Source: Escherichia phage LAMP. From it: DNA of 64,000 nt. The stretch lies in sequence record MG673519.1; one strand, 5' to 3'. The translations under genes were made by a program, and so were the position numbers. Within the stretch, counting starts at the first letter, position 1, and every line of letters begins with the position of its first letter. Positions 4,147 through 62,849 of the stretch are shown here, piece after piece. A model generated the notes under the pieces. That model saw only the letters and a list, made by a program, of their open reading frames with translations. It searched no databases and was not told where the DNA came from.

Positions 4147-4155
4147 TAATGTATA
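4147..4155 (+). promoter_or_regulatory. TAATGTATA motif, candidate phage-specific promoter element
   Basis: Exact 9-mer 34 nt upstream of the 4189 start; same 9-mer recurs upstream of other genes on both strands. Confidence 0.45.
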
Positions 4156-21614: not shown

Positions 21615-21635
21615 GACCTAAGTCCTGCCTTCCAT

Positions 21636-21644
21636 AATGTATAT
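21636..21644 (+). promoter_or_regulatory. TAATGTATA motif, candidate phage-specific promoter element
   Basis: Exact 9-mer 38 nt upstream of the ATG at 21682. Confidence 0.45.
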
Positions 21645-21681
21645 AGGAGGTAGGACATTTTTATTTATAAAAGGAGACGTT

Positions 21682-24600
21682 ATGGCTAACATTAAACCGT
21701 GGGAAGAAGCTTCCAAAGCTCCTGCGTATCTGAATGCCTCTCCGGAGCAACAGGCTCAAATGAGAGAACAATATAAGGCAGCAGGTGGCTTTATTCCTGA
21801 GGAACAACCAGTAGCACAACCACAACAAGAAGAACGTGGTGTTATAGGTGAGTTTGCTCAAGGTGTGTCAAATGCTCTTCAATCTGGTGGTGCAAACATT
21901 GCAGCTAGTGCTGCTAAAGGTATTGGTGGTTTAGTTGAGATTGGTGAAGATCTAATTGGAGCACAAACTAGTTATGGTAAGCGTATCCAAGAGAACTCTC
22001 AGAACCTTCTGAAAGAACGTATGGATAAGATTGAGGATGGGATTGGTAAAACTGCTGGTCAGTATGCTGGCGTTGTTGGTGATATTGGTTTGACAGTTAC
22101 TAACCCGTTAGCTGCCGCTGCTATCATCGCAGGTCGTGAGACAGGTCGTGCATATGCAGACCAAACCCCTAAAGAGGGAGAAGACAAGTCTGTTCTGGAT
22201 GCAGCCTTAGTTGGTGGTGCTAACTATGCAGCTCAGAGAATCCTTCCGGGTGCTGTTGGTACAGCTGAATCTACACTTGGTCGTATCGGTCAGAACATTG
22301 CTAGTAACGCAGTGGCTGGTGCTAAAGGTGGTGCTCTTGTAGGTGCTGCTGAAGCTCAGAACAAACATGGTGATGACACAACCTTTGCTAATGTCTTAGA
22401 AGGCGCTATTGAAGAAGGTGCTATTGGTGCTGCATTCGGTGGTGCAGTTGGTGGCGTTCATGGCTTAATTAGCCGTCCAGATTCTGCTGTCTTCAAGAAT
22501 ACTCCAGAATATGCAAAGACTGACATTGCTGCTGACGATGAGCTGATTCGTAGTGCTAAGACTGTTGATGAACTGAAAGAAGCCTACTCTAAAGCTGAAA
22601 CTGCTAACGCCGCTTCCGCTCTTAATCTTCTGGATGAGAATGGATTCCGTATTACTGATGCTGTTGCTTTAGATTCTCCTGCTGCTCAGCGTATTCTTAA
22701 TACAGACCAAGCCAGTGCTGAGAAAGCTGCTTCTGCTCAGAAAGAGCATTCTAACATTCCGGGCCTCAATCCTTTGGCTCCTCCTGCTAAGACTCGTGGT
22801 AAAGCATTCGCTGATAACGAGCACAACCAGAAGAAAGCTGTCGCTATGAAAGATGCAATGGCTGACTACACCAAGGATAACACGAAAGCTCTTACAGATG
22901 TTCTAGATAACCTAGACCGTGAATTAACTGCTTACCGAGCTGCTGATGATTTTACTGGCAATCCACTTGATGTCAAGAATCGCACACAAGCTGACCGTGA
23001 CTTCGTTGATGCTTATAAGACTTTCTATAATGAAGCAAATCGATTCAAAGCTCGTGATGGTGAAGACTTTAACAACTTTGTAGAGAAAGCTACTGAGCTA
23101 CGGAAGATGGCTGATAACGTTTCTCCAGAGATGAAGAAAGCTATTAGTGGGTTGAAGAAACTGAAAGGTATGCCTGAAGGTTTTAACCCTATTCAAGATG
23201 CTTATACTCTGAACAATGCAGCTAAGTTCATGAGCAACCAAGACCGTGGTTGGACTTCCCTGACCGATGATGGATTCCGTGAGGCTTCTTCTCCTAGTCT
23301 GGTTATGAACACACTCGGTGCTGCTAAGTATGCTCTGAATCGCTTCTCTTCTCAGCGTGCTCGCTCTCAACGTGTTAAGCAACAAGAAGCTAACAGCGAA
23401 GCTATCCGCTCTCTGGCTCGTGGTGATTTGGAAGTTGCTCGTGCTAAATCTACTGCTGATGAAGCTCGTGCTAAAATGGAAGAAGAACCAGTTGTTGATG
23501 ACATTAAATTTAAGACGCAAAATGACGTGGAAACCGAACCGGTTCGGGAGCCTTCTTCTAGTACTGTGACGGAAGAAAATCTTCCTTCTTCCACTCCTCA
23601 AGAAGCCCCTCTTACAGCTCGCGATTTAGTTGCTCAAAGACGTGCAGTTAAGCAGGCAGAACAGCGTCGTGCTCAAGAAGAGGCCGCACAGGCTCCAGAA
23701 CCCACTGTAGAGGAACCAACAGTCAAAGCCGAGCCATTACCTGCCCGTGCTCCTAAAGCTCCTAAGGAGTCTATACAGGACGTTAAACCGGCAAGTGGTG
23801 TAGAACGTTTAGCTGCCATGTCTAGTGCTGCTCGTCAGGCTACTATAGATCGTGCAGAACGTTTTGCTCGTTCTCTGTACTCTCAGACTGCTAAGGCTAA
23901 GGCCACTGCTGAAAACTTCTTGGCTTACAAGGGAAGTTATAGGGAGTTGATGCGTCGGATTCGTCAGGAAGATAATGCTATCAACACTGAGCGTCATGAA
24001 GAGATGGCTCGTAATCAGCTAGCTTCTCAGCAAGGTATTGCTACTGCTAAGAACAACACTGTACGAACTAACTTTGCTGAATGGGTTAAGGAACGTGGTC
24101 TGCCAGAAGACATTGCTACTAAGGCATTACGTGCTGAAGAGAAGGGTTTAGGTGGGAACGTGACTAACTTAGATAGTCTGAAACGTCGTGCTGAAAGGTT
24201 GTATCAGAAGCAGCGTGAGGACGAGTTTGACAGACTGTATCAACAGGCTCTGGAAGAGAATAAAGCTTTTGATAAGAAGAATGCTCCTAAACTGGCTGAC
24301 CAGAAGAAAGAGCTTCAATCTGAGATTGACACTTTGATTGATTCAGAACCTTTACGTCCTGCTCAGAAAGATGCTATGCGTAAACTGATGAATGACTTTG
24401 TAGATGAGAAGTTTAAATCTTCAGAGAAGGCTGGTAGGGAAGAAGCTTTGGAAGTAGGTCAGATGAAGGATATTTGGGATGGGTTTATTAACACCTATAA
24501 CAGAGAAGTGAATGCCTTCAACAAAGCTAACAAGAACTCTCAGTATGAGGCTGCTGCTAAACACTTGCAGGCTCGTGAGGAGCGTCTTATCTCTTTACGT

Positions 24601-25989
24601 AACAGAGCAGAAGCTCGTGCTCAAGCGAAAGCTACAGCAGAAGCTGAACGTAAGTTACTCGAAGCTATTGCTGGTCAGAAGACTGAGATAGAGAAGATGT
24701 TTGATGAGTTACCTAAACCTGTCCGCGAGGCTCAGGAAAGCCGTACTCTGAAACAGCTTGCAGCTCACCATGATAAGAACTCCCCTGTTCCTCCAGAACG
24801 TTTCCGTAGTATTATCGAACGTATCCACAACGCCGAGTCAGATTACCTTGATCGTCAGCGTCGTTTAACTGATGCAGAAGAAGATGCTCGTCAGGCTAAG
24901 TGGAACAAAATGTATGAGCAAGCGGAAGAGATGGACCGTAAGTTTGAGATAGACAAAAGGGTTAAGCGCAGTGAAGAGCTTAAAGCGGCTCAGAAGCGTG
25001 AGAATGACCTTATGGCGGTACAACGTCAACGTGACGACATCCATCGTCGCCTGATGCATACTTTGGAGGATAGGGGCATATCTAAAGAGGATGCTGAAGC
25101 ATTTGCTGGTTCCTACATGGATAACCGTTATGCACTTCTTGATAAGCCTATGACTCCTACTGAACATCAGAATGCTCGTTCTCGTATTGAGGCTGATGTT
25201 GAGAAGTTTGCTAAGAAGTACGAATCAATGACTCCTATTGAGAAAGAGATTGTTAAGGTTACTGGAGATACTGAAGGTAAGCTTGATAACTTGGATTCGG
25301 ATACTAGGAAGGCTATTGAGGAGGCTCGGAAGGTAGACTCTGATATTAAGAAACTGCAAGAGGAAGAGATGGAGATGGAGAAGATTCGTTCTGCTCTGCC
25401 TGATGATGAAAGATCTCAAGCAAATTCTGATATCTTGGAAAGCATTAAACAGCAGGAAGAAGCCTTTGCTGATAAAGCAGAGAAAGCTTTCTTGAATGGG
25501 AAGAGCTTGGATGAGTTGGCTAGTGTGGCTGAAGTTTTAGACAGGGTTCATGGTGCAGACAAGGCTGGTAACAACCGTCGCTTTGTACGTGCATTGCAGA
25601 CTGCTGCTGAAAACAAGAAGAAGTATGGTGATAATCCGGTAGCTTGGTTTAGTGCTGATGATTATTCTGCTATTGCTAAACTTGGTGCTTCTTCCGCAGG
25701 TGGTAACAAATCTAGAGCACTGGAGAAAATCTTTGGTTCTACAGCTGAACAAGCTAAGAGTAAGTTGCTTGGCAGGGATGATGTAGCGAAGATGAGACGT
25801 GTAATTGAAGAGAACCCTGATATTAAGATTCCTTCTTACAAGACAACGAATCGTACTGAGTACTTGCAGTTCTTGGAGAAGTTTAATGACGAAGGGAAGC
25901 CGAAGATTAAACGTGGCTCATTGTCAGAGAAGCTTGAACGCAGTAAGCGTCAATCGAGACTCCGTGTAAGAGTTCGATCTAAGGAGTGA
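21682..25989 (+). CDS. large internal virion (ejection-type) protein
   Basis: About 1435 aa from the ATG at 21682 preceded by aaggag; Ala/Glu/Lys-rich with long helical regions; last gene of the structural block. Confidence 0.5.
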   Translation: MANIKPWEEASKAPAYLNASPEQQAQMREQYKAAGGFIPEEQPVAQPQQEERGVIGEFAQGVSNALQSGGANIAASAAKGIGGLVEIGEDLIGAQTSYGKRIQENSQNLLKERMDKIEDGIGKTAGQYAGVVGDIGLTVTNPLAAAAIIAGRETGRAYADQTPKEGEDKSVLDAALVGGANYAAQRILPGAVGTAESTLGRIGQNIASNAVAGAKGGALVGAAEAQNKHGDDTTFANVLEGAIEEGAIGAAFGGAVGGVHGLISRPDSAVFKNTPEYAKTDIAADDELIRSAKTVDELKEAYSKAETANAASALNLLDENGFRITDAVALDSPAAQRILNTDQASAEKAASAQKEHSNIPGLNPLAPPAKTRGKAFADNEHNQKKAVAMKDAMADYTKDNTKALTDVLDNLDRELTAYRAADDFTGNPLDVKNRTQADRDFVDAYKTFYNEANRFKARDGEDFNNFVEKATELRKMADNVSPEMKKAISGLKKLKGMPEGFNPIQDAYTLNNAAKFMSNQDRGWTSLTDDGFREASSPSLVMNTLGAAKYALNRFSSQRARSQRVKQQEANSEAIRSLARGDLEVARAKSTADEARAKMEEEPVVDDIKFKTQNDVETEPVREPSSSTVTEENLPSSTPQEAPLTARDLVAQRRAVKQAEQRRAQEEAAQAPEPTVEEPTVKAEPLPARAPKAPKESIQDVKPASGVERLAAMSSAARQATIDRAERFARSLYSQTAKAKATAENFLAYKGSYRELMRRIRQEDNAINTERHEEMARNQLASQQGIATAKNNTVRTNFAEWVKERGLPEDIATKALRAEEKGLGGNVTNLDSLKRRAERLYQKQREDEFDRLYQQALEENKAFDKKNAPKLADQKKELQSEIDTLIDSEPLRPAQKDAMRKLMNDFVDEKFKSSEKAGREEALEVGQMKDIWDGFINTYNREVNAFNKANKNSQYEAAAKHLQAREERLISLRNRAEARAQAKATAEAERKLLEAIAGQKTEIEKMFDELPKPVREAQESRTLKQLAAHHDKNSPVPPERFRSIIERIHNAESDYLDRQRRLTDAEEDARQAKWNKMYEQAEEMDRKFEIDKRVKRSEELKAAQKRENDLMAVQRQRDDIHRRLMHTLEDRGISKEDAEAFAGSYMDNRYALLDKPMTPTEHQNARSRIEADVEKFAKKYESMTPIEKEIVKVTGDTEGKLDNLDSDTRKAIEEARKVDSDIKKLQEEEMEMEKIRSALPDDERSQANSDILESIKQQEEAFADKAEKAFLNGKSLDELASVAEVLDRVHGADKAGNNRRFVRALQTAAENKKKYGDNPVAWFSADDYSAIAKLGASSAGGNKSRALEKIFGSTAEQAKSKLLGRDDVAKMRRVIEENPDIKIPSYKTTNRTEYLQFLEKFNDEGKPKIKRGSLSEKLERSKRQSRLRVRVRSKE

Positions 25990-30099: not shown

Positions 30100-30108
30100 T
30101 ATACATTA
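30100..30108 (-). promoter_or_regulatory. TAATGTATA motif (minus strand), candidate promoter
   Basis: Reverse complement of 9-mer, about 60 nt upstream of the SSB-like gene start. Confidence 0.45.
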
Positions 30109-31940: not shown

Positions 31941-32422
31941 TTAGTGTGTATGCATCCAGTTTAACCCAATCTGACAATCAGAAGCCAGAGGACATTCCAT
32001 GTTCAAGTACTCACCAGCCTTCTTAACACAAAGCTCGGTGTACTCTTTGAGTTTCTGTACATCATTACGGTTCACTGAGAACTGGCCCTCATCGTGCATA
32101 TCAATTACCTTAGCACAACGAACTCCATCTTTCTCAATCCACTTGTTAAGGAACATCATAGCATATTTCATAACAACAGCACCAGCACATTGTAGGAGTG
32201 TGTTAAGGGCTTTATGAACCATAACCTTACCAGTGGCATCCCGTCTCATTGTAATCTTACGACCATCAACGCCAATCAAATACCCTTGAGCAGCTTTCTC
32301 TGTCATACGATCAATGAGGATTGCAATACAAGGATTCTCTGCCAAGAAGCGTGCTCGCATCACTGAACCTTCGTCAGCTCCACCACCTACGATTGAACCA
32401 AGCTTAGCATCACCTGCCCCAT
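31941..32422 (-). CDS. DNA polymerase (family A, T7 gp5-like), exon 2
   Basis: Frame open upstream of the annotated Met and encodes GAGDAKLG (motif B continuation); contains motif C VIDMHDE. Confidence 0.8.
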
Positions 32423-32726
32423 CAATAGTTCAAGCAAAGGCGCTACTCTTTGCTCCGTTCTCTTATGAACTGCTTACAGTTTCCTGTAAGATCGGACTAT
32501 ATCTTCATCTCCACCTTTACGTGCTGAGAGACAGGCGCTTCCGTAACACTTGTTACGTACTCCCTTCCGGGATAGTCTCTGAACTTTCCGTGACACAAAC
32601 TTTTCTACATAGATCATTGATGTTTATGTCACGGCTTAGCTGCTGATTGGCATATCTTTCGACTTAGCTTTCCAGCAATTCACCTGTTTTGCTTCTGCAC
32701 ATTTCTATGCAGTGAACCAATTATTT
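32423..32726 (-). mobile_element. group I intron (about 304 nt, no ORF) interrupting the DNA polymerase gene
   Basis: Exon 1 stops one codon after TFIYAFN; joining 32727 to 32422 restores NYGAGDAKLG; 5' exon ends in U, intron ends in G, GGUU near intron 5' end can pair with exon AACU. Confidence 0.7.
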
Positions 32727-34089
32727 AGTTAAAGGCATATATAAACGTCTTCGCATTATCACGAGTAGGAAGACCAGCAAGTTTCTGGTTGTGGGAGTGG
32801 ATATCACCTTCAAGAAGGATATCACGATACATAATAGCAGAAGCTAAACCACGTTCTGCCAGAGCTTTCTTAGCTGGATTATTCTCTTCGATTGCTTCAG
32901 CAAGCATATCCCTACACTCTTTAATGAGGTAGTGAGCGAGCATACGAAGTTCAAGTCCAGAACCATCATACCCTAAGAATACTTCTTTACCAGCGGGTAT
33001 GTAATATTTGTAAGCACCTACAGGCTTATCTTTCTTCCCCGGCTTACCTTTCTCGTAAATTACGTTAGTACCTTTTCGTATATAACAACCATCAGGAACA
33101 ACGTTAGTAATAACGAAAGGACGAGAGTGATCACTGTCTGAATTATAGTCAGACTCAAACAAACTGCGACACTCATGACCAAACAAACCACGGGAGGGAA
33201 TATTAACCACGATACGATGTTTGAATCGAAAAGTTGGCGTAGCGCAGCTGTTAGCTTCTGCCGAAAGTTTACCATCTTCGCGTTCCTTTGCTATGAGTCC
33301 ACTGATAAGACCTAGCCTGTGAGCCGCTACAACGCGCCTCTTAAGCAAACTTCCAACACTCCCTAGCTCGCCCCCTAACCCTTCTTCAAGAGTCTCCTCG
33401 AGGTTTGTAGGAGCTGTAGGCCACTTGTTTGAGGTAGCTAGTGCTATCTTAATCTCATCAAACGTGATAGGTCTACGTCGGTTAGGGTTTAAACCTAAAC
33501 CAAACACATAAGCCTTCATATAGTTCTTAGTCTTAAACCTAAAATGCTTCTCTAAGAACCTCCTAATATCTGCGTCAACCATCTCGGCTGTCTGCTTCTG
33601 TTTAGCATTACCTCGCATCCAAGCTGAATACCACGCTTGGTATGTTCCATACTTTCGTATATCTTTCTTGATTTCAAAAGTATTCCAAGGTTTCTTTGAT
33701 ACGTTAAACTCTGGAGGAAGAAAACCCTCATCCATAAGGGCTTCTTTAACTCGTGCATCTTTCGATGGGTCAAAGTCCACGTATTCAACACAGGTGAATG
33801 CTCCACCAATGTCTTCTCTCTTAAGGCCAACTCTATCACAATAGGCTTGAGGCCACTTCTGTAAAGCTCCAGACTTCTTAAATGGCTTCATATAAGTAGA
33901 GCCATCTAGTCTCATCTTAGGTAAGAGAGGGATCAGTTCTTTGTCGATATTAACAATAATCTCTTTAAGGAGGTGAACATACCACCGAGCATTTCTTCGG
34001 TTGAAACTCACTCCGTGCTTCGCTTGCTTAGAGATTATATCAGCGACAGTCATCTCTGTCAAAAATGGGAGAGCGTCCGGGTTGCTCAC
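32727..34089 (-). CDS. DNA polymerase (family A, T7 gp5-like), exon 1 (polymerase domain)
   Basis: Motif A GYDGSGLELRMLAH and motif B RDNAKTFIYAFN; colinear with T7 DNA polymerase from the end of its exonuclease domain. Confidence 0.85.
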
Positions 34090-34854: not shown

Positions 34855-35172
34855 TTACGATGAGCTTAAAGCTCCTTTGCGTGCTCCAGCTGCTTTTCCA
34901 GCTCGATCACCACTTTTGCCGCCGTTTGAACGGTTTGAGCTGACTGATTCAACACGTAAGTTGCTTGACGCATTAGAGCCTCCAGACTTGACAGCTCGTT
35001 TGTGTCCAACGTCTTTACCTCTGACAGCAGCTTTTCCATCGCGCTTTTCAACGATGCGACGTGCACGGTGGCGCTGAGCATCTCCGCTCTTGCTCCCAAT
35101 GCCTGTCTCACCACGGGCAATTGCGGTACGTCTTTCTTGTGCATAATCTCTCTTTCCTACATGGTCTGCCAT
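34855..35172 (-). CDS. highly basic Arg/Lys/Gly-rich protein
   Basis: ATG preceded by AAGGAG and by a TAATGTATA motif; a second long ORF (34866-35144) overlaps it in another frame. Confidence 0.4.
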   Translation of the reverse strand: MADHVGKRDYAQERRTAIARGETGIGSKSGDAQRHRARRIVEKRDGKAAVRGKDVGHKRAVKSGGSNASSNLRVESVSSNRSNGGKSGDRAGKAAGARKGALSSS

Positions 35173-54544: not shown

Positions 54545-54778
54545 TTACTCGCCTTTCTTAGCACGATCTTTGGCAGTTTTGCCAGTGCGGATGCGGTGTG
54601 AAACGTTAACCAGAGTGCCACCATCAACTACGGTAACGCTCTTGTTTTTAGCCAGATCAAACACAGCCTTCTCTGTGCCACCCAAGCGAATTTGCTTAGG
54701 TTCACTGAAGGTTTGGGTTGATTTAGATTGGAACTGGAACGGTTGACGGATTGCATCAATTGCACTTACTTTAGACAT
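54545..54778 (-). CDS. hypothetical protein
   Basis: 77-aa ORF followed by a 9-bp-stem hairpin. Confidence 0.35.
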   Translation of the reverse strand: MSKVSAIDAIRQPFQFQSKSTQTFSEPKQIRLGGTEKAVFDLAKNKSVTVVDGGTLVNVSHRIRTGKTAKDRAKKGE

Positions 54779-55008
54779 AGGGGAAATTCCTTAAAAATCA
54801 TGGCTGCGTAGAGGGAATTCCCTACGCAAATTAGGCCGCCTAAAAAGAGGCGTCATAGTACTAAAAGGAGGAGAGAAGAGGACTTATTTAGCTACCTTTT
54901 TCTGTCCGTTTACGAACCAGATAATTGAACCATCAGACTGTCGTTGACCGAAGCCTTTCTGGTTGATCATATCGTCATAAGAATATGCTTTAGGTCTCAT
55001 TTGTTTTC

Positions 55009-55257
55009 CTACGGAGTTAAGATAATTTCAGCCTTACTAAACTTCTCACCAACAACCGTGTCACCAGATACGACACGAACTTCGCCCGTACCTAGATTAA
55101 CAGCTACAGCAGGTTGACAACCACTGCTCTTAGCTGTCAGCATATAAATCTTTTGATTCTGGCACTCTTGGAGTGTGAACACGTCCGTCACATTTAGATC
55201 TCTTACTCGGAGGATTTTTTCCTCTTTGCCTTTAACTTTAATGTTAATAATGCTCAT
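55009..55257 (-). CDS. hypothetical small protein (paralog of 55260-55502)
   Basis: Shares VNL(G/M)TG(E/V) and basic N-terminus with neighbour. Confidence 0.35.
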   Translation of the reverse strand: MSIINIKVKGKEEKILRVRDLNVTDVFTLQECQNQKIYMLTAKSSGCQPAVAVNLGTGEVRVVSGDTVVGEKFSKAEIILTP

Positions 55258-55259
55258 GA

Positions 55260-55502
55260 TTACTCCTGAACCACTGACATACGAATCATTTCAACCTGAG
55301 TATCACTCTTCATAACACCCAAAACACCAGTCATAAGATTAACTGTAGTAATCCAGTCTTTTTCTACAGAGATTTTGCTGGATACATTGGCAACACGCAT
55401 ATAATACTGAGGTGCTGAACCTTGTTGGATTACGAAAGGATTTCCGGGAATAATTGTAGCCAGTGAAACAGTGTTATCCTTTTTCTTTGGGATGATCTTC
55501 AT
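55260..55502 (-). CDS. hypothetical small protein (paralog of 55009-55257)
   Basis: Tandem arrangement with similar length and motifs. Confidence 0.35.
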   Translation of the reverse strand: MKIIPKKKDNTVSLATIIPGNPFVIQQGSAPQYYMRVANVSSKISVEKDWITTVNLMTGVLGVMKSDTQVEMIRMSVVQE

Positions 55503-55510
55503 ATTGATTC

Positions 55511-55822
55511 CTATTTAAGTTTGAGGCTAATATTAAGGTGCATACATGCCCTGTTCTGTACAGCAGCATAACTTCTACCGAGCATTTCAGCCATTCTCTG
55601 AATAGGCATAAACCCAGCATTACGGATAAGGAACTGATCTTCTTCTTTAGACCACTTAACTCGGAGTACAGCTCTTGATATACCGAACTTAGTGCAGGCT
55701 GTATTAACTGCATTCTCCGTTACATTCATAATCTGAGCAACCTCTTGAACCGAGTACTCTTTGATTAGTCTCCGAAGATTTTCAATCTGCATCGGAGTCC
55801 ATATAGTTCTTCGTGCTTTCAT
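55511..55822 (-). CDS. DNA-binding protein with two Myb/SANT-like helix-turn-helix repeats
   Basis: Two repeats starting W(T/S)...; HTH-like segments VQEVAQIMNVTENAV and IQRMAEMLGRSYAAVQNR. Confidence 0.4.
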   Translation of the reverse strand: MKARRTIWTPMQIENLRRLIKEYSVQEVAQIMNVTENAVNTACTKFGISRAVLRVKWSKEEDQFLIRNAGFMPIQRMAEMLGRSYAAVQNRACMHLNISLKLK

Positions 55823-55887
55823 ATACCCTCCAATTAAACATTTATATAAGACTTGCTTAGATAAAGATTCAATAAAATAGGGGGAGG

Positions 55888-55923
55888 GGACGAATCCTCC
55901 CTTATCCTATTAATTAGTATTGC
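55888..55923 (-). terminator. terminator-like imperfect hairpin
   Basis: aatagggggagg...cctcccttatcctatt with T-rich tract on minus strand. Confidence 0.45.
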
Positions 55924-56118
55924 ATGTAAGATCTAACAATCGGTTTCCTTTGTAGGAATAAGCGTTATGCTCATCCAGCACTAAACTCCCGCCCCCTTAG
56001 TGGGCTGGGTTATTAAAGGGTAACGCCCTTATGGGCTAGTTACGTGAATGTTAGTTTGATAGGAGATCTGAAGTCCTATCTCAAAGGACTCTCGTAAGAA
56101 TCCTTCACGATAAGCTCT

Positions 56119-56340
56119 TTAGTAAACTAAGCCTACAACCTTTGCATCAGGCTGAGGCACTACTTGTGCATTAGGGCGATAACCGTCTACCGAACCATTC
56201 CAAAGATTGACGCAGGTGATATACCCGTCATTTAAGAAATCTGTTTTAATCCAGAAATGTTTATCATGCCCAAAAACATCCCCGTTAGAGAGGGAGGAGA
56301 GCTCAACAGTTTTAAGTGACTGCTTAGAGTCTAGTTTCAT
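56119..56340 (-). CDS. hypothetical protein
   Basis: 73-aa ORF. Confidence 0.35.
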   Translation of the reverse strand: MKLDSKQSLKTVELSSLSNGDVFGHDKHFWIKTDFLNDGYITCVNLWNGSVDGYRPNAQVVPQPDAKVVGLVY

Positions 56341-56349
56341 ATAAGTTCC

Positions 56350-56547
56350 TTAATATACCAAACCCTGTAAGAGAAACACCCTCTTTGTAAGCTCTGCTTT
56401 AGCTCTGTAATAAGCCTTAGAACCTAACAAGCGGTCCTTAACAAAGAACTTAATGTCATTGCTAACATCTTGTATTAAACGCTCCTGCACAGCTTCTGAG
56501 GAGTTATTAATCGAATCAATTAACACCTTTGTAGATGTGTAATTCAT
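56350..56547 (-). CDS. hypothetical protein
   Basis: 65-aa ORF. Confidence 0.3.
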   Translation of the reverse strand: MNYTSTKVLIDSINNSSEAVQERLIQDVSNDIKFFVKDRLLGSKAYYRAKAELTKRVFLLQGLVY

Positions 56548-56548
56548 A

Positions 56549-56830
56549 CTACCACTCCTTACCAGACGTTGTTACAGAACCGCTACACCACTGTGCATTC
56601 GACAGTGTTTTAGTTTCTTCATCAACAGCTGCACCATTAAGGCAAGAGATCCCATTATAGCGCATATCAATCTCACCAGAAGGAACCTTGTTCCCTGAAT
56701 GCCAGCGAGATACGCACACACCTTCAACAGCTACTGCACACCATCCATCAGGACGGCTCTGTACGCAGCCTGTAAGGGCCACACAGACAATGAAGATACA
56801 GATTAAGGATATTACACCACCCCAACTCAT
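56549..56830 (-). CDS. lipoprotein with Cys-rich mature domain
   Basis: Signal peptide with lipobox LTGC (LICIFIVCVALTGC). Confidence 0.5.
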   Translation of the reverse strand: MSWGGVISLICIFIVCVALTGCVQSRPDGWCAVAVEGVCVSRWHSGNKVPSGEIDMRYNGISCLNGAAVDEETKTLSNAQWCSGSVTTSGKEW

Positions 56831-56849
56831 AACTATCTCCTAATTAATT

Positions 56850-56925
56850 TGGTGCGCCCTACAGGATTTGAACCTGTAACCAATAGCTTAGAAGGCTACT
56901 GCTCTATCCATTGAGCTAAGAGCGC
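56850..56925 (-). tRNA. tRNA-Arg(UCU): tRNA-Arg, anticodon UCU, CCA encoded
   Basis: Hand-folded cloverleaf: 7-bp acceptor stem, D-arm GCTC/GAGC, anticodon loop CTTCTAA, 5-nt variable loop, T-arm ACAGG-TTCAAAT-CCTGT, discriminator A, CCA. Confidence 0.9.
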
Positions 56926-56988
56926 TTAATTTATTTAGATCATATCTCGCTTGGTGATAGGACCACACACTTTACATTCATACCAACC

Positions 56989-57240
56989 TCAAGCACATGC
57001 AGGGAGTGTGATGATTTCAGGTTTACCTTCGAACTCTTCAAACAAACCCAAGAATGTAGGACTGTAAGTACCAGTACAAACAAACTCATCAAACAGTTCG
57101 TTATAGCTAGGCTTAATCTTCCAAGCCCATACATAACCCATCTTGTCAATTGCAATGTAACGAGTGTTTAGAGGAACAGTCATCATCACACCATCAACTT
57201 CGACCACTTTAGTGATTGGTGCAGCTTGGAAGTTTTTCAT
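56989..57240 (-). CDS. hypothetical protein
   Basis: 83-aa ORF. Confidence 0.35.
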   Translation of the reverse strand: MKNFQAAPITKVVEVDGVMMTVPLNTRYIAIDKMGYVWAWKIKPSYNELFDEFVCTGTYSPTFLGLFEEFEGKPEIITLPACA

Positions 57241-57292
57241 ACTTTACCTTTAATTAAAACAACAAAGGCCACCCAATCGGGCAGCCTTTCTT

Positions 57293-57544
57293 TTATTGAC
57301 TCACACCACGAATCAAATGATTCTGTAGCATTTCATCTTCTGCATTATAAAGGAATGCGAACATCAATTCCTTAGCCACATCTCTTGAGCAGTTAAGACA
57401 CTTAGAGATTTGAGCTAGTTGCATATTACGTTCGGTGTGCTCCACTAAGGCAATGCGAATGATCTCTCGCATACCTATTACATGGGCTGTTTTAACCGGC
57501 ATAGGTCCAATTACCTTGCTTGTCACGGATAGTGGACATTGCAT
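57293..57544 (-). CDS. hypothetical protein
   Basis: 83-aa ORF; an alternative 46-aa ORF upstream in another frame makes the start uncertain. Confidence 0.3.
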   Translation of the reverse strand: MQCPLSVTSKVIGPMPVKTAHVIGMREIIRIALVEHTERNMQLAQISKCLNCSRDVAKELMFAFLYNAEDEMLQNHLIRGVSQ

Positions 57545-57932
57545 GAAGCCAGAATCCTTCCAGTTTCAGAGCACCATTAGTTACTGCATCCATACGTTCA
57601 GGGCGGTTCATACGTTTGGTTGATACTTTCATACCTATCTCTCTTTGTTAGTGGAGGCATTATTGCCAGTTGATATAGCAGATAGCCCTATTAAAAAGGA
57701 CTACCGACTATCTAAACTGGTGAAGACTCCCTACCCCTAGGAAGTCTCCTGAATCCCAAACCAATATGTACCCCTACATATCAGAAAGTCTACCGAAAAT
57801 TAACAGGTTTTAGTCTAACACCGGATGTTCGAGCAAGCTCTCCCTAGCGGTGTGGCATATGCCTGATTTAATAAGTTAATGAGGAACACCCTCACATAGC
57901 CCTCTGATAAGCACAAGGGCTATAAGTCGGTG

Positions 57933-58229
57933 TTACTTGTCGGCTTCAATCTCTTGATGCTTAGCTATAGCTACTCGCAAGTCCTCATTAGCACGAGTAA
58001 GGCGTAATACTTCATGGTTGAGATTCTTAAGACGCTTGTTTCTATCTTCAACTTGCGTAATAAGATCATTAAGAGTTGCTTTAACTTTCTCATTATACAT
58101 CTCATCCACTCGGACTAGAGATTTGTACATTCTCTCCCAGCTTGCTGCTTTGTTCCTAAGGATAATAAATCCTATAACGCTGATAGTTAAACAGCTTACA
58201 AAAAGGAATTTATATATCTCTAAAGTCAT
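57933..58229 (-). CDS. membrane-anchored coiled-coil protein (holin- or spanin-like)
   Basis: N-terminal TM FLFVSCLTISVIGFIIL followed by charged helical region. Confidence 0.4.
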   Translation of the reverse strand: MTLEIYKFLFVSCLTISVIGFIILRNKAASWERMYKSLVRVDEMYNEKVKATLNDLITQVEDRNKRLKNLNHEVLRLTRANEDLRVAIAKHQEIEADK

Positions 58230-58428
58230 ATTATTTACCCTTTATCAGAGATTAAAAGTAATATTATTTAAGTAAGTTATATTTAGTAAACTTATTTTCT
58301 AAGAAATTTTCAAAGGGTCTATATACAGAGCATTACCCATAGTCCCAGAACACTACCATCTTTTTCAATAAATTTACTAAGTGGTTGGTTTATAAAGGAA
58401 TTTAGTTTGTCAAATCTGGCACTAGTGA

Positions 58429-58818
58429 TTATTCCCTAGAGCTATTATCGAACACTAAATCACCACAATACATAGGATTGGCATACCATTTTGGCACCCC
58501 TTCGCTCTTACTTTGAAAGTAAGTCCCACTGTACAGCGGAACATAATTCTTCTTAAGGGCACGTTTAGCAAGTCGCTCGCTTTCTCCAATGGCTTGCTTA
58601 GTCATCGGATTTTTATCACGAATCAGCTTTACATAACGTTTATAAGGTTTCTCCTGTTTTAATAGTACCGGAATCCACTCAAACTGGTTATTTTGTCTTA
58701 TCACCTGTTCAGCGGTCAGTTTTCGTTGAGCCATTCTGTTTATTACGGTATCCGCAACCATAGCTTTACATGCGGTTGGCTGATTCCCTGCCTCATAATA
58801 AATAGTCAATGTCAACAT
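58429..58818 (-). CDS. cell wall hydrolase (SleB / Hydrolase_2-like)
   Basis: N-terminal IYYEAGNQP...VADTVINRM resembles the EARGE...V.NR motif of SleB-type hydrolases. Confidence 0.5.
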   Translation of the reverse strand: MLTLTIYYEAGNQPTACKAMVADTVINRMAQRKLTAEQVIRQNNQFEWIPVLLKQEKPYKRYVKLIRDKNPMTKQAIGESERLAKRALKKNYVPLYSGTYFQSKSEGVPKWYANPMYCGDLVFDNSSRE

Positions 58819-58866
58819 TAGCTGGGCCGTTGTTATCAGAACTTGCTACCTCCTGTTTTACGGGCA

Positions 58867-58893
58867 TAAAAAAGCCCCAGCCGTAGCCGGGGC
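58867..58893 (-). terminator. rho-independent terminator
   Basis: gcccc...ggggc hairpin followed by TTTTTT on the minus strand. Confidence 0.6.
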
Positions 58894-58954
58894 AAACCTG
58901 AAAGCAACGCATGACCGTTGCTATAAATACACTCGCAAATGCACTTACAGCAAC

Positions 58955-58978
58955 GCAAAAAGCCGCTCAAAGGCGGCT
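58955..58978 (-). terminator. rho-independent terminator
   Basis: agccgc-ctttga-gcggct hairpin followed by TTTTTG on the minus strand. Confidence 0.6.
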
Positions 58979-59028
58979 ATGCGGAAGCTTCAAATGGGGA
59001 GGGCACGACGCTACAGAAAGAGCGTCAT

Positions 59029-59206
59029 AGTACTAAAAAGAGAGGCTATTGGAGAGGTTACTTATTGCCTTCTTTAATGCCTTGTTTTCTTGTTTAACCA
59101 ATTCGTTTTCTTCTTGCAAGGATGCTACCAGATGGACCAGAACATCAACTACTGAATCACCTTGCCGCATCTCTCTGACTTTATTTAGAATCTCTGAATA
59201 AATCAT
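59029..59206 (-). CDS. small coiled-coil protein (59 aa, below ORF-track cutoff)
   Basis: ATGA start/stop overlap with upstream gene; hand translation MIYSEILNKVREMRQGDSVVDV... Confidence 0.3.
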
Positions 59207-60410: not shown

Positions 60411-60446
60411 ATAAAAGAAAAGGCGCTACCCGTTAAGATAGCGCCT
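60411..60446 (-). terminator. rho-independent terminator after first early gene
   Basis: Perfect 8-bp inverted repeat aggcgcta/tagcgcct followed by TTTCTTTTAT on the minus strand. Confidence 0.7.
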
Positions 60447-60469
60447 TATGTTTATTTAGATTGTCTTAC

Positions 60470-62351: not shown

Positions 62352-62628
62352 TCACTTTTTTAATCTTTTTTCATCGTTCCCGTTATTGGGAAGATATATC
62401 AATCAGCTATATTTGATTGAAGATTAAGCGATCAGGCTTGAACTTATGATTCATATTTTTAAAGAGCGGTGAAGCATTTACAGCTTAACACATCGTGTTA
62501 GCTTGTCAATCTCTTTTTTATCATCTTCTTTCATTCCGTTCCCTTATCTCGCGTGAATCTATGCGAAAGGGCAAGATGATAAATTTTTAAAGAGCAGGAT
62601 ATTTTGATTCATCGCTGAATATGTGCTC

Positions 62629-62657
62629 ATTATGCATCAGGCTTTTTCCGGTGTCAA
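62629..62657 (-). promoter_or_regulatory. sigma70-type promoter (TTGACA-N17-CATAAT)
   Basis: Read on the minus strand; A-tract-rich upstream region. Confidence 0.65.
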
Positions 62658-62849
62658 TACTCTTTTTAAGAATATTTTCACTTTCTAGCCTGATTTTTAA
62701 AGAGCGTTTAAAGTTGTATGGCTCCCATAACACCATTTGATAATCAGCTAACCCGCGATTATTTGGGGGCATAGTATCCGCTTGCCTACGTCTGACTTGC
62801 TTCACTCACTAGGGAGTTACTTGAGCGGTCAACTTGTCTTTCTAAGCTC

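Follow-up and report, generated by a model that had tools for sequence, protein, structure and literature searches.

Escherichia phage LAMP (sequence record MG673519.1) is considered here over a stretch of 64,000 nucleotides (nt), referred to below as the window, in which an identical 17-mer occurs twice among the early genes, each time at the end of a small open reading frame (ORF). We present here an analysis of both copies, of a related third site inside a late gene, and of their counterparts in other phages. The conserved core of the 17-mer is the motif at which the packaged DNA of certain Pseudomonas phages is nicked, and the two copies are probably recognition sites of a nicking system of this kind.

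The 17-mers and their conserved core

Read on the early-transcribed minus strand, the 17-mer is TTTTAGTACTATGACGC (GCGTCATAGTACTAAAA on the plus strand). Exactly two copies are present, at 54850-54866 (site 1) and 59022-59038 (site 2), and no others were found elsewhere in the 64-kb window with up to two mismatches. The chance level is 0.02 matches, and two or more copies occurred in 0 of 100 dinucleotide-preserving shuffles. Site 1 lies in the intergenic gap between a gp94-like ORF of 38 amino acids (aa; 54884-55000) and a gp93-like 77-aa ORF (54545-54778), and a CT-rich tract fills the space between the stop codon of the former and the 17-mer. Site 2 includes the stop codon (TAG, 59033-59035) of a 57-aa ORF (59033-59206). 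Both copies run into a short hairpin, the 5′ arm of which is formed by the terminal GACGC of the 17-mer itself.

The original prediction, made without database searches, was right in naming two identical copies, but its coordinates (54851-54867 and 59013-59029) were off by 1 and by 9. It placed each copy a few nt past a stop codon, which is roughly so, with copy 1 lying 17 nt after TAA and copy 2 containing TAG. Hairpins were expected after both copies and are present (Table 1). The terminators that were to follow exist after copy 2, where two are canonical; copy 1 is followed only by a weak hairpin-plus-T site.

The window represents a phiEco32-like coliphage (Kuravirus group) with 96% identity to ManiMatter_Bas94 and about 91% to phiEco32. 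Both 17-mers occupy positions in the early-gene region that correspond to the phiEco32 gp94/gp93 and gp120/gp119 gaps. Both are carried by phiEco32 at the orthologous intergenic positions, its copy 2 with one A-to-G change, and the two sites were found at orthologous intergenic positions in every relative examined (12 phages at site 1 and 11 at site 2, drawn from the genera Kuravirus, Suseptimavirus, and Nieuwekanaalvirus). The only invariant sequence at both sites in the three genera is TACT[A/G]TGACG, with the R position as its sole variable base. The TTTTAG prefix and the 8-bp palindrome TAGTACTA are specific to Kuravirus, and the other genera have (A/G)C-TACT. The downstream hairpin occurs in 21 of 23 instances and in several stem versions (12/12 relatives at site 1, with at least three different stems, and 9/11 at site 2); KBNP1711 and 4E8 have retained the site 2 motif and lost the hairpin. 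The constrained part is the 10- to 12-nt core AGTACTRTGACG rather than the 17-mer or the hairpin.

Sites 2 and 3 and those of Suseptimavirus are likewise preceded by a CT-rich tract similar to that of site 1. When IMG/VR was scanned for the exact 17-mer, only phiEco32-like contigs were returned, with one or two copies each. At position -1, the three Kuravirus sites all have G, whereas the other genera and Salmonella phage 7-11 have C, a concerted change that hints at a single trans-acting reader with shifted specificity. Both copies thus persist at orthologous sites in three genera amid intergenic DNA that has drifted or been replaced, and the earlier view of a conserved functional element rather than a chance repeat is upheld.

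Several relatives differ from the window up to these very sites. Homology begins exactly at the 17-mer in myPSH2311 (site 1) and in WFI101126, Ptacy1532, Bas93, and 172-1 (site 2), and in the Suseptimavirus group it ends just past the hairpin of site 1. Gene content upstream of site 2 varies among relatives, an extra 57-aa ORF being present or absent immediately before it, with joins at or near the motif, and the flank of site 1 in KBNP1711 is similar to that of site 2 in Suseptimavirus. From these comparisons the sites coincide with mosaic joints, and sequence seems to have been exchanged between sites 1 and 2 in different lineages. Such a junction pattern is compatible with nick-stimulated recombination.

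A third copy of the core (site 3) lies on the plus strand within a large late gene. When four phages from three genera are aligned over this coding stretch, which is only about 72-75% identical, TACTGTGACGGAAGA exceeds every other invariant run in length, and the invariance takes in four synonymous positions. Each of the three sites lies on the sense strand and is flanked by a CT-rich tract upstream and a short hairpin downstream. A fourth match to the consensus discussed below, TACTATGCC, lies at 62768-62776 on the minus strand inside ORF 62587-62805; it is probably a chance or very recent occurrence, because it is absent from the closest relative, ManiMatter_Bas94.

The nick motif in related phages

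Phage T5 has been known since the 1960s to carry site-specific nicks in its packaged DNA, and phiKMV-like and LUZ24/tf-like phages were later found to have them as well. In the virion DNA of Pseudomonas putida phage tf, 14 ligatable single-strand nicks, all on one strand, were mapped to 5′-TACT/RTGMC-3′ (Glukhov et al. 2012, PMC3517423). Phage Rembedalsseter has a WACTRTGAC nick motif at 13 sites, determined by nanopore strand coverage (Dougherty et al. 2025, PMC11780129). The core TACT[A/G]TGAC of the window fits the consensus TACTRTGMC, reading TACTATGACGC at sites 1 and 2 and TACTGTGACGG at site 3. Since the annotated tf sites have G after the 9-mer (position +10) in 12 of 14 cases and end in GACGC, as in the window, in 4 of 14, the match extends to 10-11 nt, with only the degenerate R varying. 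Taken alone, the 9-mer match is weak evidence.

The phages themselves are related. About 16 collinear proteins are shared by tf and the window (tblastn), including head, scaffold, and tail proteins, DNA polymerase, both exonucleases, primase/helicase, and an amidoligase cluster. The gene order of tf is also that of the window: a "phiEco32-like COOH-NH2 ligase," amidoligase, glutamine amidotransferase, ATP-grasp, GGCT, primase/helicase, and a separate exonuclease. The window primase/helicase is 45-47% identical to those of LUZ24-like phages (47% to that of tf), which are its next closest kin after those of 7-11 and LAh_9-type phages.

The motif is strongly enriched in one of these nearer relatives. 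Salmonella phage 7-11 (NC_015938) has 13 copies of TACTRTGMC versus 1.4-2.4 expected (P = 1e-6 to 3e-9), split 12:1 between strands; with ACTACTGTG variants included, there are 17 copies, 16 of them on the minus strand. The flanks are nearly fixed, with A at -2 in 12/13, C at -1 in 13/13, and G at +10 in 12/13, giving ACTACTGTGACG. These 13-17 sites are mostly inside genes and are concentrated toward the early end. As in tf, several overlap start codons, among them those of gp138 (ATG) and gp089 (GTG). In an unbiased scan of 9-mers, the motif was the top over-represented word in both 7-11 and tf. From its motif content, 7-11 is predicted to carry an unreported set of genome nicks.

Exact TACTRTGMC has zero copies in the whole genome of Aeromonas phage LAh_9 (MK838115). 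The top over-represented 9-mer of that phage is ACTACGGTG(ACG), with 12 copies versus 0.4 expected and a strand split of 10:2. This word extends to ACTACGGTGACG / TTACTACGGTGACG, which is the same 12-mer with one substitution adjoining the cut position. Of the two minus-strand copies, one falls within LAh9_136, a large late gene, and is oriented as sense there, a placement comparable to that of site 3 in the window. Two AAGTACTGTGACG sites, both on the sense strand, are present in 16 kb of a metagenomic phiEco32-type contig. Motif enrichment was absent from another metagenomic contig (L028), which encodes a divergent homologue of the HNH-like protein described below. When four lineages are pooled, the sense strand carries 41 of 44 sites; in tf, sites sci13 and sci14 are antisense to the local genes.

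According to Dougherty et al. (PMC11780129), the motif is not enriched beyond their Pseudomonas cluster. Their null result is expected for Kuraviruses because the net strand difference is one.

A candidate enzyme and other features of the window

The window encodes a small protein of family PHROG 4590 (Table 1) that is 58-63% identical in tf, 7-11, and LAh_9 and is the best-conserved protein shared by these lineages. H57 and N80 are invariant in the family, and D56, GG, and N71-L72 are nearly so. Its members match the Pfam families HNH (21/33) and HNH_3 (14/33) weakly, mostly below the curated cutoffs, and a profile search of the family against PDB sequences found nothing. An AlphaFold2 model of the window protein contains a beta-beta-alpha unit at a predicted local distance difference test score of 68, and a basic N-terminal extension precedes the HNH-like part. 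On sequence and model grounds this protein is a candidate for the site-specific nicking enzyme, and we treat it as a lead. A divergent small-HNH homologue lies directly upstream of the terminase gene in logan:SRR11005199_107598 (47.7 kb, SU10-portal-type). The top over-represented 9-mer of that contig is ACTACAGTC(A), with six copies, which is possibly a variant of the motif family.

Table 1. Coordinates of the sites, their flanking features, and the candidate enzyme in the window
Feature	Position	Strand	Basis or remark
Site 3 CT-rich tract	23549-23559	+	Upstream of site 3
Site 3 core, AGTACTGTGACG	23560-23571	+	Inside 1450-aa late ORF 21637-25989 (phi32_26 homologue)
Site 3 hairpin, GGAAGA-AAA-TCTTCC	23571-23585	+	Starts at last motif base
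105-aa protein, PHROG 4590, probable minimal HNH (beta-beta-alpha-Me) nuclease	34855-35172	-	Putative; candidate nickase
Weak hairpin-plus-T site after copy 1	54804-54829	-	
Site 1 hairpin, CGCCT-CTTTTT-AGGCG	54837-54852	-	Folding; 5′ arm is the 3′ end of the motif
Site 1, 17-mer TTTTAGTACTATGACGC	54850-54866	-	Exact match
Site 1 conserved core, AGTACTATGACG	54851-54862	-	TACT[A/G]TGACG invariant across 12 phages, 3 genera
CT-rich tract, GTCCTCTTCTCTCCTCC	54867-54883	-	Read directly; between TAA (54884-54886) and site 1
Canonical intrinsic terminators downstream of site 2	58961-58978 and 58874-58893	-	Terminator scan; context, not motif
Site 2 hairpin, GACGCT-CTTTCTGT-AGCGTC	59007-59026	-	Folding; 5′ arm is the 3′ end of the motif
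Site 2, 17-mer TTTTAGTACTATGACGC	59022-59038	-	Exact match
Site 2 core, AGTACTATGACG	59023-59034	-	Conserved in 11 phages

Between the two terminators downstream of site 2 is a long, near-perfect hairpin of about 18 bp (GUUGCUGUAAGUGCAUUU-GCGA-GUGUAUUUAUAGCAAC, 58905-58956, minus strand), and the 126-nt region that contains it has a folding z score of -4.5. The hairpin is kept in Kuraviruses and 4E8 and is replaced in KBNP1711 and Suseptimavirus. Only subthreshold Rfam matches (MicX and others) were obtained for this region; an RNase III site and a small RNA are both possible identities. The 9-mer AAGGCGCTA occurs five times in the window versus 0.16 expected; two copies form the arms of a terminator hairpin, AAGGCGCTATCTTAACGGGTAGCGCCTT, at 60420-60447, and the others are scattered (62006, 32437, and 22400).

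The published gp36 promoter element TAATGTATA has matches at 4147, 21635, and 30172 on the plus strand and at 30108, 35217, and 39222 on the minus strand, at expected late or middle positions, those at 30108 and 30172 forming a divergent pair at about 30.1 kb. The match at 21635 overlaps the predicted ATG (21637) of the 1450-aa ORF, so the true start of that ORF may be further downstream. The family-A DNA polymerase is split on the minus strand between ORFs 32725-34089 and 31941-32363, about 360 nt apart, both of which match one continuous polymerase gene in tf. The tf paper noted an intron in the LUZ24 polymerase gene (PMC3517423), and the window polymerase (31941-34089) may likewise contain an intron or be a split gene.

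Mechanism, alternatives, and significance

The 17-mers are two of the three conserved motif copies of this phage, and we consider it probable that they are recognition sites of a site-specific nicking system. The motif 5′-(A)(G/C)TACT/RTGACG-3′ is common to LUZ24/tf-like phages, 7-11, the phiEco32-like Gordonclarkvirinae, and, with one base changed, LAh_9. It would be recognized late in infection by a sequence-specific nicking enzyme that the phage encodes and for which the small HNH-like protein is the candidate. The motif-bearing (sense) strand of the packaged DNA would then be nicked between TACT and RTG, as in tf and Rembedalsseter. Nicks are accordingly predicted in the window phage at three places: on the minus strand between T54857 and A54856 (TACT/ATGACG) at site 1, in the gp94/gp93 gap; on the minus strand between T59029 and A59028 (TACT/ATGACG) at site 2, upstream of the early-operon terminators; and on the plus strand between T23565 and G23566 (TACT/GTGACG) at site 3, inside late gene 26. 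The nicks may also promote recombination at the mosaic junctions.

A number of observations weigh against this proposal. The window has four TACTRTGMC matches, three of them conserved, versus 1.0-1.9 expected (P = 0.02-0.12), and so is without the clear over-representation seen in relatives; the case rests on conservation and on the relatives. The conserved sites are on both DNA strands (two minus, one plus), whereas tf has 14:0 on one strand. Sense placement may reflect avoidance of template-strand nicks, but it could equally fit a motif that is read during transcription; on present data a sense-strand rule and a one-DNA-strand rule are inseparable. As for the enzyme, the window protein itself has no Pfam match, and its Foldseek top list, although mostly composed of HNH nucleases (including a Geobacter HNH nicking endonuclease), has only matches with E values above 1. 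The HNH gene adjoins the terminase gene in one metagenomic relative, which suggests a role in packaging. No reports of nicks in phiEco32-like phages, 7-11, or LAh_9 were found in the searchable literature. The CT-rich tract and hairpin are absent at the 7-11 sites, and their presence at all three window sites is not accounted for by a simple recognition-site model; nor is the identity of the 17-mers beyond the 12-mer core. We regard these as local accessory features, which may result from sequence exchange or gene conversion between the sites. They may raise nicking efficiency or serve transcription; they may also act after nicking, as the nicked strand would have its 5′ end two bases ahead of the hairpin.

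The same accessory features suit a motif that is read during transcription, from the nontemplate DNA strand or the RNA. It would belong to a pause, antitermination-loading, processing, or RNA-stability element made up of the CT-rich tract, AGUACURUGACG, and the hairpin, an element that at site 2 would let early transcription handle the two terminators directly downstream. The tract and hairpin accompany all three sites, and all three are sense, including site 3 on the opposite DNA strand, as are 41/44 across lineages. The loop of the site 2 hairpin, CGCUCUUUC, may also be likened to a boxA element. An undefined antitermination strategy has been called likely in 7-11 (PMC8948821). Still, we find this reading unlikely. 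The motif is a demonstrated DNA nick site in tf, where sci13 and sci14 are antisense; the 7-11 sites lack both hairpin and tract and are mostly within ORFs; and KBNP1711 and 4E8 keep the site 2 motif with no hairpin. There is no Rfam match, the hairpins have no U-tracts, and it is hard to see why a processing site would be needed midway along the gene 26 mRNA.

The joints described above would also be expected if the intergenic cassettes (stop codon, CT-rich tract, motif, and hairpin) were homology patches that shuffle early-gene modules with no enzymatic recognition of the motif. Homology joints fall at the 17-mer or just past the hairpin in several relatives, the 57-aa ORF upstream of site 2 comes and goes, and the site 1 flank of KBNP1711 is like the Suseptimavirus site 2 flank. 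This explanation leaves the third copy, in a coding region, without a reason, as it does the 13-17 copies in 7-11 that have no cassette structure and the identity with an experimentally defined nick motif; the element also has no promoter (-35 and extended -10 are lacking). It appears quite improbable as an alternative, and recombination linking is better viewed as a consequence of nicking. We give even less credence to a site that is bound but not cut, either by a conserved DNA-binding protein (for example, a relic nick system reused for regulation or replication) or, as a promoter for another holoenzyme, with TACTAT as a -10-like element. Three sites per genome, compared with 9-17 in relatives, would suit such a relic, and TACTAT keeps the key -10 positions T-12, A-11, and T-7, followed by a GC-rich stretch. 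However, every copy lacks a -35 element and a TG extension, the gp36 sigma motif tAATGTAtA differs and is found elsewhere in the window, the TACTGT variants and the copy in a late ORF do not fit, and binding without cutting has nothing in its positive support.

Labeling the motif as a terminator or RNA-processing site is not supported. The original prediction of RNA processing, termination, or regulation at the 3′ ends of small ORFs gives way to a probable DNA-level reading, in that the core is constrained rather than the 17-mer or hairpin, the hairpins lack a U-tract, and the core equals a DNA nick motif. That prediction had also counted many further copies at unrelated positions as evidence against itself; the 17-mer has only its two exact copies, but the additional copies of the core inside genes come close to such a pattern. 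Other identities were considered and rejected. The hairpins are not intrinsic terminators, being followed by GGCCUAAUUUG (site 1) and GUGCCCUCCCC (site 2) with no U-tract, and the true terminators are further downstream. As a sigma-70 promoter, the element offers a -10-like TACTAT with no -35 hexamer at 16-18 nt and no TGn extension, and a promoter scan calls none. A gp36-dependent middle or late promoter is excluded because tAATGTAtA (6-8 nt before the start) is unlike the 17-mer. Rfam 15 gave no covariance-model match at either site up to an E value of 5, the only passing match in the window being tRNA-Arg at 56853-56925. The palindrome TAGTACTA as a site for a dimeric protein is not conserved in Suseptimavirus or Nieuwekanaalvirus (CTACTA), and a small ORF starting at the ATG of the motif lacks a Shine-Dalgarno sequence and has inconsistent lengths (5 versus 21 aa). 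The prophage small RNA svsR, considered as a Kuravirus-targeting partner, acts via host LamB and adsorption and has no pairing target. GenBank record starts near site 2, considered as physical breaks, are offset by about 110-350 nt and are not at the motif, and the enriched 9-mer TGGTCGTGA reflects in-frame Gly-Arg-Asp/Glu codon usage. The 17-mer element is not among the entries of the published promoter and terminator maps of phiEco32, SU10, and 7-11, including the SU10 tables, in which sigma-70 early promoters and terminators are placed elsewhere.

Among known systems, the nicks of tf/LUZ24-like phages are the closest to the proposed nicking sites. Over 9-11 nt the two motifs are the same, down to the degenerate R and the G or GC that often follows at the 3′ end, and sites in both groups are found mainly on the early-gene sense strand, in many cases at gene boundaries. 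The differences are that three conserved sites per genome, with predicted nicks, compare with 8-14 in tf/LUZ24-like phages, so that numerical enrichment is lacking, and that the window phage has one site on the opposite DNA strand, an added CT-rich tract and hairpin, and an E. coli host. Phage T5 is nicked at 5′-R/GCGCRGG-3′ and phiKMV-like phages at CGACNNNNNCCTA/CTCCGG; the T5 nicks are dispensable, and those of phiKF77 are repaired early and made again late (PMC3517423). These nicks are alike in kind, being site specific, strand specific, ligatable, and present in packaged DNA, but their motifs and phages are unrelated to those considered here, and T5 tolerates degenerate "minor" sites. T4-type PeSL cassettes and lambdoid boundary sequences are short, conserved intergenic stem-loop elements that flank small early ORFs at mosaic joints. 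PeSLs contain an early promoter and are not known to lie within coding regions or to involve a nick motif; the window element has no promoter. The HUH rolling-circle initiator RepB of pMV158 nicks 5′-TACTACG/AC-3′. This likeness, which we take as a lead only, extends to TACTAYGAC, to the LAh_9 variant TACTACGGTGAC, and to an adjacent hairpin, but RepB cuts at G/A rather than at TACT/R as in tf, and no HUH/Rep protein was found in the window.

A broader scenario is offered tentatively, as we think it more doubtful than the nicking sites themselves. One clade, composed of phiEco32-like, 7-11-like, Lahexavirus, and LUZ24-like phages, may have inherited the nicking system, its recognition sequence changing from ACTACTGTGACG to AGTACTRTGACG to ACTACGGTGACG in coevolution with the small HNH nickase. 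In Kuraviruses the system would have been pared down to three elaborated sites, each with CT-rich tract, motif, and hairpin, which would be either recombination hot spots behind the shuffling of early genes or points at which replication or repair enters.

To our knowledge, neither a function for the nicks in packaged DNA nor an enzyme for the TACT/RTGMC class has been established. The link between motif and nicks was already known for LUZ24/tf-like Pseudomonas phages, and we found no reports tying the motif to phiEco32-like, 7-11-like, or Lahexavirus phages. Its presence in coliphages, in 7-11, and, as a one-base variant, in LAh_9 would extend the system well beyond Pseudomonas phages, to easily manipulated hosts. 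Nicking offers a mechanistic account of the early-region mosaic joints that coincide with sites, and for annotation purposes, the "conserved intergenic repeats" of Kuraviruses should not be labeled terminators or promoters. All of the sites in a Kuravirus can be mutated, because there are only three and two of them are intergenic, and possible roles of nicks in packaging, injection, recombination, defense evasion, or transcription are thus open to genetics. If the proposal is true, these phages would offer an E. coli model amenable to genetics, in which three sites and a named candidate enzyme could be used to address a 50-year-old question, that of the purpose of the nicks.

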